A DNA stretch of 37,365 bases, from IMG/VR virus record IMGVR_UViG_3300025018_000064, positions 1-37,365 of that record; one strand, 5' to 3'. The DNA comes from a virus (lineage: Duplodnaviria > Caudoviricetes). The notes beneath the pieces were generated by a model. The model ran no database searches. It saw only the letters and a list, made by a program, of their open reading frames with translations, and was not told where the DNA came from. A program made the translations under genes and the position numbers. Below are positions 5,729-32,193 of the stretch, in pieces; position 1 is the stretch's first letter, and the number at the start of each line of letters is the position of its first letter.

Positions 5729-5929
5729 ATGAAAAATGGAATTGTAAAATGGTTTAACGACCAAAAAGGATTCGGATTTATTGCCTCAGACAACCAGGAT
5801 TACTTTGTGCATTTTAAAGAAATCCAGGGTCAAGGCTTCAAGAGTTTAAAAGAAGGTGACAAGGTTAGTTTTGAATCAGGCTCATCACCGAAAGGCCCTA
5901 TTGCCAAAAATGTAGTTGTCTTAGGCTAG
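5729..5929 (+). CDS. Cold-shock domain protein (CspA family)
   Basis: GIVKWFN, RNP1 KGFGFI, RNP2 YFVHF, GFKSL.EG..V.F. Confidence 0.95.
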
Positions 5930-12757: not shown

Positions 12758-13000
12758 ATGGTTTTAGATATTCGTTTGGATTTCATCACTAAAATTGACC
12801 CGCAATATATTGAAGCAATGATTAATATTCGTCAAAACTTCATTGAACTGGATAATTTGTTGACAGGCATGGCCTTAGAAGCTGAAAGCAAAAAAGATGG
12901 TGCTGCATCACGGTGTGTTGCTTTGGCGCGTACTGCTAATGAATCAGCATGTCAATCTACCATTAAGGCGCTATGTCTTTTAGGTGAAGCAAAAGGTTAG
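12758..13000 (+). CDS. Small helical protein, possible Acb2/Tad1-like nucleotide sponge
   Basis: AAGGAG RBS; helix-hairpin with SRCVALARTANESA...KAL, resembling by recall the family R..ALA.T..E.A....KA helix. Confidence 0.45.
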   Translation: MVLDIRLDFITKIDPQYIEAMINIRQNFIELDNLLTGMALEAESKKDGAASRCVALARTANESACQSTIKALCLLGEAKG

Positions 13001-29555: not shown

Positions 29556-29635
29556 CATCATCCTATCTTGACATTTACATATCTTGACATCATTATATCA
29601 TGCAATCAAAATATTAAGGCATCATGATATGATAA
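29556..29635. repeat. 8-bp-period array upstream of parA (operator/centromere candidate)
   Basis: About ten in-phase degenerate units, e.g. TATCTTGA, CATCATTA, TATCATGC, CATCATGA. Confidence 0.7.
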
Positions 29636-30261
29636 TTTCTATTTTAAATCAAAAAGGTGGTACGGGTAAAACCACGCTTGCAGTCAATATTGCAAGAGAG
29701 TATACCAAGCGCACAATGAAAACACTGCTCGTTGATTCGGATAGCCAAGGGTCGGCTTTGCGGTGGCATGAGGAATCCGGCGGTGAATTGATAGATTTAA
29801 CCTGTTTGCCTGTCACTACCCTTGACAAGGATGTCATCAAATTCAAAGACCGTTATGAGCGCATTATCATTGACGGTATCCCAAGGGTGTCACCCTTGAC
29901 TGTGTGCGCTATCAAGGCGGCTGATGTTGTTTTAATCCCCGTGCAGCCGTCACCCTATGATGTGTGGGCGACTGAGGACTTGGTGAGGCTCATCAAGGAA
30001 CGTATCGAAATCACGGAAGGCAAGCTTAAGGCAGCTTTTGTGATATGCAGACGGATAGCTGGCACGATATTAGGCCGTGAGATTAATCACCAACTTTTTG
30101 ATTCCGGATTGCCTGTCTTTGCGCATGGCACGTTCCAGCGACAGGAATACGCCAAATCCGTACAGGAAGGCCGAACCGTTTGTGAAGAAATGACAGAGGC
30201 CACCAAAGAAATTGTGGCTATCGTTAATGAACTTGAGGATTTTTATCATGGCCAAAATTGA
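29629..30261 (+). CDS. parA: Type Ib partition ATPase (ParA/ParF-like)
   Basis: [32 protein letters not shown]; 210 aa, no N-terminal HTH. Confidence 0.93.
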
Positions 30262-30448
30262 ATCAGGTGTTGAATTTGACAAAAATGCTAATCATGAGAA
30301 ACTAGCCCGACTTGCGGCTGATACTCAGCAATATACGTTGCGCATTCCTAAGCATCTTTATAAACAGGTGAAGATGAAACTCGTGAAGGAAAACCAAAAG
30401 CTGCGTCCTGTTTTGATTAGAATGTTAATGGAATACATTAAGACATAA
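30248..30448 (+). CDS. ParG-like centromere-binding protein (probable ribbon-helix-helix)
   Basis: 66 aa overlapping parA end; YTLRIP..L...VK strand-helix-helix pattern; GAGG RBS. Confidence 0.7.
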
Positions 30449-30500
30449 TGATATAAAGTCATCATGATATGTTGACATCTTCATATCATGATGTTAAAGT
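30444..30500 (+). promoter_or_regulatory. Second 8-bp-period array overlapping a sigma70 promoter
   Basis: CATAATGA TATAAAGT CATCATGA TATGTTGA CATCTTCA TATCATGA; TTGACA (30472)-17 bp-TAAAGT (30495). Confidence 0.7.
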
Positions 30501-30508
30501 TTTACTCG

Positions 30509-30658
30509 AAGTATCACTTGAGAGGGGAACCCTCTGGCGCTCATCATCGCTGGATGACTCTACACTCAGCATAGCACTCCTTGGCGGTTTCCGAGGGTTG
30601 AGATGGAAAAATGTGTAGGAGGCTGGTTGATTACCAGCTCTCCGTTCAAGTGATATTT
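30509..30658 (+). ncRNA. Structured RNA domain 1
   Basis: 13-bp closing stem AAGTATCACTTGA/TCAAGTGATATTT enclosing four helices; starts just after the promoter. Confidence 0.6.
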
Positions 30659-30660
30659 AT

Positions 30661-30784
30661 GGCGCAGGAGGCTCACAACGTGAGCGACTGTCGTAGGGAC
30701 TTGATGGGAAAAAACCCAGATGAGAGATGACGGTCACGAACTTCCCTATTTCGCGGAGAGTGAAACTCTCTCCCTGCGCCACCA
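30661..30784 (+). ncRNA. tRNA-like RNA 1 (124 nt)
   Basis: Acceptor-like stem GGCGCAG/CTGCGCC + ACCA; arms GCTCAC/GTGAGC, GACTGTCGT/ATGACGGTC, GAGAG-TGAAA-CTCTC; no canonical anticodon arm or TTC loop. Confidence 0.7.
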
Positions 30785-30790
30785 GTTAAT

Positions 30791-30889
30791 GGGGTAGAGG
30801 CTCAACAAACCTAGTCGTTCCTAATCTATTGGGACAGGCGCACGAGGTTATCGATTGAGAGATAACGCGATGTAGGAGCTACCCCACCA
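30791..30889 (+). ncRNA. tRNA-like RNA 2 (99 nt)
   Basis: GGGGTAG/CTACCCC + ACCA; internal CCTA/TAGG, TCCTAA/TTGGGA, GTTATC/GATAAC. Confidence 0.65.
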
Positions 30890-30904: not shown

Positions 30905-31099
30905 ATGAAGTGGAACAAAGAAAGGCAAGACTTTTTAATATCAGTTTTAACAGTGCAAATGCTGTTTTTGATTTGTAAGTTTTTTGGAATATTTACGTTA
31001 TCGTGGTTTTGGATACTGTCACCATTTTGGTTCTCTCTCTTTTTGATAACAATTTTAAAAGTTTGGTTTGAAATTTTTATTATGGGTAGAGGTTGGTAA
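30905..31099 (+). CDS. Small membrane protein similar to 2665-2856
   Basis: CKFFGIFTLSWFWILSPFW; AAGGA RBS. Confidence 0.7.
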   Translation: MKWNKERQDFLISVLTVQMLFLICKFFGIFTLSWFWILSPFWFSLFLITILKVWFEIFIMGRGW

Positions 31100-31411
31100 A
31101 TGAATAAGTTAATGGTGAGGATGACTCTTGCCGATATTTTGTTAATGGAAGCATTAATTTCGCAATACATGCGAGAAAAGAATATCAAAGATATTAATAA
31201 AGTTGACGAAAAAGTCATCCAAGAGCGCTACGATGAAATTATAAAATTAGAAACGTGGAAAAATCCCTCAGACGAACCAAGCATCAAATGCCCACAATGC
31301 AGAATGGTCAGTTACAACGAAAATGACATCAAGCATAAATTCTGCGGGAACTGCCATGAATGGCATGAGGATATGAAGCTTAAGGATAACTCTAGTGAGC
31401 AAATGGATTAG
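31100..31411 (+). CDS. Protein with C-terminal zinc ribbon
   Basis: CPQC..SYN.ND....CGNCH. Confidence 0.7.
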   Translation: MNKLMVRMTLADILLMEALISQYMREKNIKDINKVDEKVIQERYDEIIKLETWKNPSDEPSIKCPQCRMVSYNENDIKHKFCGNCHEWHEDMKLKDNSSEQMD

Positions 31412-31725: not shown

Positions 31726-31923
31726 ATGCCATTACATAAAAAGAAGAAAAAACACACATCTGTCGCTAAGAATGCAAACTCTATGTTTAATGAACCAAAA
31801 ACAGAAAATAAAACGCCAGGTTGCACGCAAAACGTCAATGTCGAGGTTAATATCGACCAGAAAGATGATTGCTTGACGGGGTGTTTTCAGGCTTTGATTG
31901 GGGCGTTTAAAAAGGGTGCTTAA
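31726..31923 (+). CDS. Small moron-like protein
   Basis: Extended -10 TGATATAAT at 31683-31691; AGGGGG RBS; poly-Lys N-terminus. Confidence 0.65.
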   Translation: MPLHKKKKKHTSVAKNANSMFNEPKTENKTPGCTQNVNVEVNIDQKDDCLTGCFQALIGAFKKGA

Positions 31924-31925
31924 GA

Positions 31926-32176
31926 TGGCGAATCCAGGGGAGTTTAAACCCCTGGAATCTCATAGTCTAACTACCCCAAAAGTAGGTTTACCGTCCTCTG
32001 CTTTCGCTTTGGAATGCTTGTCTCTCCAAGCTGTCAAGCCTCTGGTTTCCCAAGTTTATGTCTGCATGAGTTCCGGCTTTCTACTACCAGTATTTAGGTG
32101 ACACTTCCATCAAGCCAACACGTGATTCGGCTTGCCATCGTCCTCAAGTTTTTAGGATGAGTCCACGTGATCGAAG
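31926..32176 (-). ncRNA. Candidate ~250-nt structured ncRNA
   Basis: Minus promoter TTGCGC-17 bp-TATATT (32210-32182); many hairpins, two GAAA tetraloops; G-U pairs form only on the minus strand. Confidence 0.6.
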
Positions 32177-32193
32177 CGTATAATATATACAAA

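Follow-up and report, generated by a model that had tools for sequence, protein, structure and literature searches.

The window, that is, the whole stretch of DNA analysed here, is a complete virus record of 37,365 bp with direct repeats at its ends, and it carries behind its partition genes a row of RNA units that have tRNA-like ends around bodies unlike those of tRNAs. Comparison with related viral loci indicates that this row is one version of a family-wide, apparently undescribed cassette system, and covariation marks one of its units, U1 (type A), as a new conserved RNA family. Our preferred, still tentative, reading is that the array is an accessory operon of tRNA-ended RNA cassettes, which would be released by RNase P and would serve as decoys or mimics for host RNA-binding proteins by their shape and not by base-pairing. 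A preliminary description of this DNA had placed U1 and U2 and the 6-nt gap between them correctly, and the GG start and ACCA end that it reported are present in both; it had overlooked the promoter and U0, the third unit, both of them upstream. The features of the locus are given in table 1.

Table 1. Features of the array locus, in positions of the window
Feature	Position	Strand	Basis or remark
ParA-like partition ATPase	29629..30261	+	PHROG 164, E 6.8e-41; Pfam AAA_31/CbiA
Small ribbon-helix-helix (Arc/ParG-like) protein	30248..30448	+	PHROG 582 Arc-like, E 7.7e-4; longer frame 30212-30448
12-bp inverted repeat around the -35 box, likely site (centromere/operator) of the ribbon-helix-helix protein, predicted	30460..30493	.	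sequence
Sigma-70-like promoter, extended -10, TTGACA-17-TAAAGT	30472..30500	+	10/12 matches, TG present; consensus match only
U0, leader unit: long closing stem and three-arm junction, without CCA	30509..30656 (start approximate)	+	frame and topology kept in relatives
Leader ATTTAT ahead of U1; predicted RNase P cut 30660/30661	30655..30660	+	type A leader conservation
U1 (type A RNA), 124 nt	30661..30784	+	9 homologous sequences, covariation in all helices counted
U1 acceptor	30661-68/30773-80	+	type A alignment
U1 D-like stem	30671-85	+	type A alignment
U1 long arm, anticodon position	30686-30735	+	type A alignment
U1 pseudoknot, 30694-30699 with 30743-30748	30694..30748	+	TA, AT, GC, GC invariant in 9/9; pairs 5 and 6 doubly changed
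Kink-turn-type arm, A-rich apical loop	30700..30726	+	tandem GA and 3-nt bulge in 7/9; longer bulge in 2/9
U1 variable hairpin	30737-53	+	type A alignment
U1 T-arm	30756-72	+	type A alignment
T-loop analogue TGAAACT	30761..30767	+	7-nt UG..A loop in 7/9; TGCAA version in the two closest homologues
Spacer/leader GTTAAT, 6 nt; predicted RNase P cut 30790/30791	30785..30790	+	matches junction of related arrays
U2, 99 nt: 7-bp acceptor and ACCA around two hairpins, without T-arm	30791..30889	+	fold z -2.40
First downstream ORF, 64 aa, hydrophobic, RBS directly behind U2	30905..31099	+	PHROG 1374

The units follow the genes of a ParA-like ATPase and of a small ribbon-helix-helix protein, for which no relative was found in the PDB. 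Because the predicted promoter lies inside the likely site of the latter protein, expression of the array may be tied to the plasmid-prophage state. The ORF behind U2 is likely co-transcribed with the units, the first terminator-like site after U2 being found only at 31113. Reads of one sequencing run, only possibly of RNA, yielded two short pieces, neither of which lies over U1 or U2, and they bear on expression in neither direction. Repeats downstream of the ribbon-helix-helix gene (30446-30500 in the window, and in L001-L017) covary with the beta-strand motif of the protein, three protein variants going with three repeat types, which suggests a recognition code between centromere and protein. 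A 130-aa ORF lying over U2 on the minus strand was rejected as a shadow, its homologues being absent from the relatives' loci examined.

A homologue of U1 stands behind the ribbon-helix-helix gene in 3 of 18 loci found via ParA, and further searches brought the type A set to nine distinct sequences, the window's U1 included, which split into two subfamilies. They fold into a five-way cloverleaf with an acceptor of 7-8 bp, a D-like stem and a T-stem of 5 bp each and an NCCN end. One strand of the pseudoknot lies in the long arm, below an element of the kink-turn type, and the other in a hairpin loop. The acceptor/T branch is 8/5 in U1 and 7/5 in six homologues. When only the three closest type A RNAs are compared, both sides have changed at 15 of 42 pairs (0/500 shuffles; 0-3 in slid controls). 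Over all nine sequences, in a count that took in the pseudoknot and left out the kink-turn arm, 293 of 297 cells were paired and 20 of 33 pairs were doubly changed, two of them in the pseudoknot; since the nine sequences form two subfamilies, these cells and counts are not independent events. A model built on these three sequences recovered the six members of the other subfamily (E 2e-10 to 3e-5, 1.8 Mb searched) along with four weaker matches, which were other tRNA-ended units. The sole host match of the type A model was tRNA-Ser (E 0.002), whose T-stem is also that of the two closest U1 homologues. Acceptor pairs 3-6 vary freely among type A RNAs, and a fixed synthetase identity is therefore unlikely; charging of U1 by an enzyme that ignores the anticodon could still be envisaged. 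Of the simpler pattern searches for U1, the first gave four matches, all unrelated coding DNA, the second ten matches, of which five were chance, and the third nothing beyond the already known L294 contig.

Several details of the preliminary description change with this fold. The closing stem has the reported 7 bp in U2; that of U1 has 8 bp. The word GAGGCTCA, taken as an echo of tRNA, begins in the last stem base of U2, and because six of the nine type A sequences alter it with compensation, it represents one side of a stem rather than a constant echo of tRNA. That the bodies lack a TTC loop is literally true, but U1 has the equivalent of a T-arm, with a 5-bp stem and a 7-nt loop (TGAAACT), stacked on its acceptor; similarly, there is no anticodon-like loop, but a long arm fills the anticodon position in U1. 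The TAGGGA/TCCCTA pseudoknot proposed for U1 is borne out by double changes at two of its six pairs.

U0 stands directly ahead of type A in the window, in the related genome G018 and in a sister phage; its frame and topology are kept in all three and its closing stem is compensated, signs by which it is conserved at the level of RNA structure. This long stem ends right before the U1 leader. U2, known from one sequence, is accepted as a candidate unit, judged by position, leader, stem, ACCA end and folding only: nhmmer found no homologue over 2.5 Mb of loci, and the 2 and 14 matches of two pattern scans were coding DNA, ordinary tRNAs or chance. Its acceptor is identical to that of phage tRNA-Leu/Ser/Tyr genes elsewhere. 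Compared with 200 shuffles, folding gave z -4.30 for U1 (0/200) and z -2.40 for U2 (3/200), and when the whole window was put through 100 dinucleotide shuffles, a tandem GG..NCCA pair closed by 7-bp stems appeared in one of them. Words that U0, U1 and U2 have in common with host rRNA reach at most 8-10 nt, a chance length.

The slot behind type A is filled differently from one virus to another, by U2 in the window, by a type D unit in the sister phage (whose order is U0-type, type A and type D exactly in the place of U2), and by a type C unit in L004. The longest row, in G018, has nine units: a U0-type leader, type A, six others and a tRNA-Gln, called by ARAGORN at a lowered threshold. A pattern drawn from the neighbouring type C unit gave 90 matches in 86 viral loci, 44 of them with a matching 3' scaffold, and a junction pattern gave 14 metagenome loci. 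Many more units lie in the surrounding loci; they are closed by a stem and end in NCCN-like sequence, the same short and A/T-rich stretch linking one to the next. The 112 distinct candidate units fall into 53 clusters, six of them with at least two members; since the unit detector gives false positives (57 raw matches, and 30 when the sequence is reversed), the number of clusters is at most 53. Class A, C or D was found by pattern, which detects known classes only, in 6 of 31 near-complete genomes selected by capsid and in none of the reversed controls; one more genome with an array, G030, was recognised by eye. A search of 86 genomes from the order of the likely host did not find the type C pattern, which was restricted to inserts of 15-45 nt. 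In the window, L003, L017 and the sister phage, an RBS and ATG come directly behind the last unit, and in several loci lone single units precede genes.

Type C (L004 3141-3246 and 40+ other loci) has a fixed scaffold resembling 5S loop E and a variable hairpin insert of about 20-75 nt. Type D (L004 3253-3372, L298 1652-1871) has an 8/5 shell like that of tRNA-Sec and a TGCAA T-loop; its bodies are very variable, and 17 units fall in one cluster. A longer tRNA-ended class (a 206-nt unit in L053, L045, and L294 1339-1489) has common internal conserved blocks and a T-loop-like hairpin. Beside type C matches in L041 and L067 stands a unit whose core, judged by eye, is hammerhead-like, Rfam being silent at E<=0.05. 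Elsewhere in the window, a second conserved tRNA-like element lies on the minus strand behind the helicase gene (31923-32008); it has a covarying T-arm-like hairpin, an end that reads CCA and homologues in G001, G010, G018, L001 and L003, without a match in Rfam. Just upstream of it, a conserved and apparently non-coding stretch of the minus strand (32010-32190, also in L001, L008 and L017) could belong to a second array as another RNA unit.

Maturation of the units by RNase P is likely. A review lists A(-2)U(-1), the acceptor/T helix, the T-loop and a 3' RCCA as what bacterial RNase P recognizes (PMC10731613), and the leader agrees with the optimum described there. Type A leaders have U(-4) in nine of nine, A(-2) in eight and U(-1) in seven, the leader of L116 being imposed by the search pattern, and A(-2) is present in 7/7 type D leaders; the counts for type C leaders are circular, because the search pattern contained the leader. 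C4 RNA is cut by RNase P although it has no T-loop, according to the same review (PMC10731613), and cutting of the T-arm-less U2 would therefore be covered. Polycistronic tRNAs can be separated by RNase P alone (PMC2190699), and the likely host carries a type A RNase P RNA. CCA is encoded in 5/9 type A, 32/47 type C and 2/7 type D units, so that CCA addition by the host would be needed for the remaining type A RNAs. In the mechanism that we propose, one transcript would run from the promoter through U0, U1 and U2 into the downstream ORFs; the acceptor/T helix and the 3' RCCA would direct RNase P to its cut after A(-2)U(-1); 3' ends would be trimmed, the host CCA-adding enzyme completing units without an encoded CCA; and the tRNA-like ends would be a tag for maturation and stability, the body being the working part. 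The central proposal of the preliminary description, tandem tRNA-ended RNAs that are not tRNAs and are likely matured by the tRNA machinery, is thus upheld by the covariation, the A(-2)U(-1) leader, the tRNA in one related array and the RNase P RNA of the host.

We compared the units with known RNAs of similar build. The P4 CI RNA is reportedly a phage RNA of the same maturation as C4. C4 itself, of phages P1/P7, is likewise a non-tRNA phage RNA with a GG 5' end, a closing stem and a cut by host RNase P (PMC5320573, PMC10731613). However, C4 is a single RNA of about 77 nt with three stems and a'/b' loops that have matching targets, whereas the array has tandem, varied units, a T-arm, a pseudoknot and a kink-turn; U1 and U2 matched no Rfam C4 model. 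RNA C and RNA D of phage T4 lie within a tRNA cluster and undergo tRNA-like processing, and their maturation is probably like that of the array. In contrast to the array, whose reshuffled units are of many kinds and for the most part unaccompanied by real tRNAs, they are two fixed RNAs of a lytic myovirus; the sequence comparison, a blastn search of a phage collection only, was empty or at chance level. They appear as species 1 and 2, small phage RNAs of unknown function, in PMC9697503.

The polycistronic allo-tRNAs are also odd cloverleaves with long acceptors, some of them outside translation (Mukai et al., PMC5389517), and the TGCAATT T-loop of the closest U1 homologue recurs in tRNA0, an irregular tRNA-Ser-like RNA of the supplement. 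They have 8/4 or 9/3 branches and anticodons and belong to Acidobacteria, unlike U1, which has 8/5, or 7/5 in homologues, and no anticodon loop. Three unit-start motifs were absent from the supplementary spreadsheet; the figures of five-stem and polycistronic RNAs in that work could bear on novelty. The bacterial Y RNA YrlA is a noncoding RNA of bacteria and phages with a tRNA-like domain that is a substrate of tRNA enzymes (PMC4201824), but Y RNAs adjoin Ro60, and no TROVE gene was found in any of four records (the phage, two relatives and the likely host assembly). The combination of a 12-13-bp acceptor/T helix, T-loop and NCCA, as in canonical tRNA or tRNA-Sec, is found in U1 and not in U2; the tRNA covariance model did not match, ARAGORN called no gene in U1 or U2, and the 7-nt anticodon loop on a 5-6 bp stem is absent. 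Rfam gave no match at gathering score, its five weak matches (E<=10) all lying upstream of U1. tmRNA was rejected on the third acceptor pair (C3-G70 in U1 and G3-C70 in U2, not G3-U70) and on empty ARAGORN and Rfam results, and an intron-containing tRNA on an insert of about 45 nt without a ribozyme match. The array units are not tRNA, tmRNA, allo-tRNA or Y RNA, and what was found does not place them with C4/CI or with T4 RNA C/D; no account of such arrays was found in the literature searched.

The window encodes P22-like head and ejection proteins, Sak4/SSB, a helicase and a Cro-like regulator besides ParA and the small Arc-like protein. No tyrosine integrase was found among its genes, and the only regulator found is the Cro-like one. 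At least 179 relatives by capsid were found among viral contigs, and capsid identity to the best cultured phages is below 30% among the matches listed; blastn of the locus against cultured phages and plasmids gave nothing above chance level. Of the relatives found, the nearest (capsid 96%) belongs to the single-cell genome BBSC-SA01, described by its authors as an uncultured soil Legionellales bacterium (PMC7453286); it is a contig of 36,484 bp that bears a terminal repeat of 55 nt. Because this one relative sits in that genome, the phage is likely a plasmid-type prophage of Legionellales-like hosts; two further genomes that matched the phage are MAG bins of Bacteroidota. In a gene-content comparison covering two of three genomes, no repressor or integrase domain appeared among the 20 ORFs scanned of the 22 extra ones in an array-less relative. 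An 80-aa ORF between the scaffold and capsid genes (12758-13000) has a sub-threshold match to the Acb2/Tad1 hairpin domain (E 0.0015). A cold-shock protein gene lies at 5729-5929, and in L048 another one comes after a type C unit.

A possible partner emerges for type C, the commonest unit, which is absent from the window. Its two fixed strands share 18 of 22 positions with loop E of the likely host's 5S rRNA, the top-scoring site of the whole rRNA operon, and the four mismatches are confined to two pairs; 1 of 49 type C units has the host letters on both strands of one differing pair. Judged on sequence only, the match is moderate, a score of at least 18 being reached by 10 of 200 shuffled operons (p about 0.05), and the same version of loop E occurs in 15 of 86 genomes of the host's order. 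The protein bL25, which the likely host encodes, binds 5S loop E. It is named as one of the 5S-binding proteins in PMC10931766. The likeness may simply be that of a building block. If it holds, at least one cassette class would mimic a site to which a host protein binds, and the array would by extension be a set of shape-based decoys.

In our preferred reading, then, the released, stable RNAs would act as shape mimics or decoys of host RNA-binding proteins, and such a general decoy role remains the best guess. A bolder form of it, which we regard as doubtful, makes the tRNA-style ends an expression tag used throughout the phage family for dozens of reshuffled RNA folds, each a mimic or aptamer that would jam a different host or defence protein or bind a signal molecule, with U1 as a new kink-turn/pseudoknot/T-loop fold and type C as a ribosomal 5S decoy; if true, the library would be an RNA-only counterpart of anti-defence gene islands.

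The units could also be uncleavable tRNA-shaped decoys for defence enzymes that target tRNAs, such as anticodon nucleases and toxins that modify or clip CCA. U1 does retain an acceptor, a D-like arm, a T-arm and a CCA end, the type A model finds a tRNA-Ser as its only match in the host, the patchy distribution is typical of counter-defence loci, and the Acb2/Tad1-like match lies elsewhere in the genome. We nevertheless consider this unlikely, as CCA is encoded only in part of the units of each class and the bodies are more diverse than a CCA decoy needs; the anticodon-nuclease version put forward in the preliminary description fares poorly because the apical loop is A-rich, variable and of 4-9 nt, not anticodon-like. 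About equally unlikely is a role in cis, in which the units would mark cuts in the mRNA of the accessory genes behind them and stabilise its 5' end, the freed RNAs being by-products. The start sites right behind the last unit in four loci and the single units before genes would fit such a role, which is nonetheless exceeded by rows of three to nine different units, four invariant pseudoknot pairs and a kink-turn.

The preliminary description had offered as one possibility antisense immunity, in which processed RNAs pair with phage transcripts and hold lysogeny without a CI repressor, as C4 and CI do. The maturation logic is indeed that of C4 (PMC5320573), and the phage is temperate and plasmid-like, with only a Cro-like regulator and no integrase. 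Yet complements in the phage genome are 10-11 nt at most, inside the range of shuffles, and those of the loops only 6-7 nt; the check on the host chromosome was a blastn search of the sister phage's host, insensitive to short sites. Moreover, pairing in the pseudoknot occupies the conserved loop, the loops left free differ among the sequences and have no evident target, and Rfam gave no match to the C4 clan. Because no antisense target exceeds chance and the array is unrecognised in most close relatives (6/31 have a recognised unit), C4-like immunity is quite improbable. A kink-turn and pseudoknot around an invariant core is the architecture of the SAM-I and c-di-GMP-II riboswitches. The similar core of U1, with four pseudoknot pairs invariant while other stems change, recalls it and could point to an aptamer set in a tRNA scaffold that would bind a small molecule and so soak up a metabolite or immune signal; with no riboswitch family matched in Rfam and few invariant unpaired bases, we hold this equally improbable. 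Finally, descent from tRNAs is likely because the T-stem of the closest U1 homologues and the U2 acceptor equal those of host tRNA-Ser and phage tRNA-Leu/Ser/Tyr, but that the units are merely decayed tRNA genes or neutral DNA repeats is scarcely credible given compensatory changes in helices foreign to tRNA, G-U pairs kept on this strand and a U0-type A order conserved in three phages, the covariation refuting decay for U1, whereas U2 might still be a decayed tRNA.

Phage RNAs that are matured like tRNAs and have other roles have been known for decades, as isolated cases only (C4, T4 RNA C/D). What is new here is a system of interchangeable cassettes, as many as nine in a row, with the covarying fold of U1 and a class that has a testable partner in 5S loop E and bL25. 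Engineered expression scaffolds made from tRNA and 5S rRNA likewise combine a constant, stable shell with a variable RNA cargo; these are synthetic, whereas the array would be a natural, arrayed version. It thus offers a natural library for the function of such RNAs, several new RNA families, and a natural design for making many stable RNAs from one promoter.
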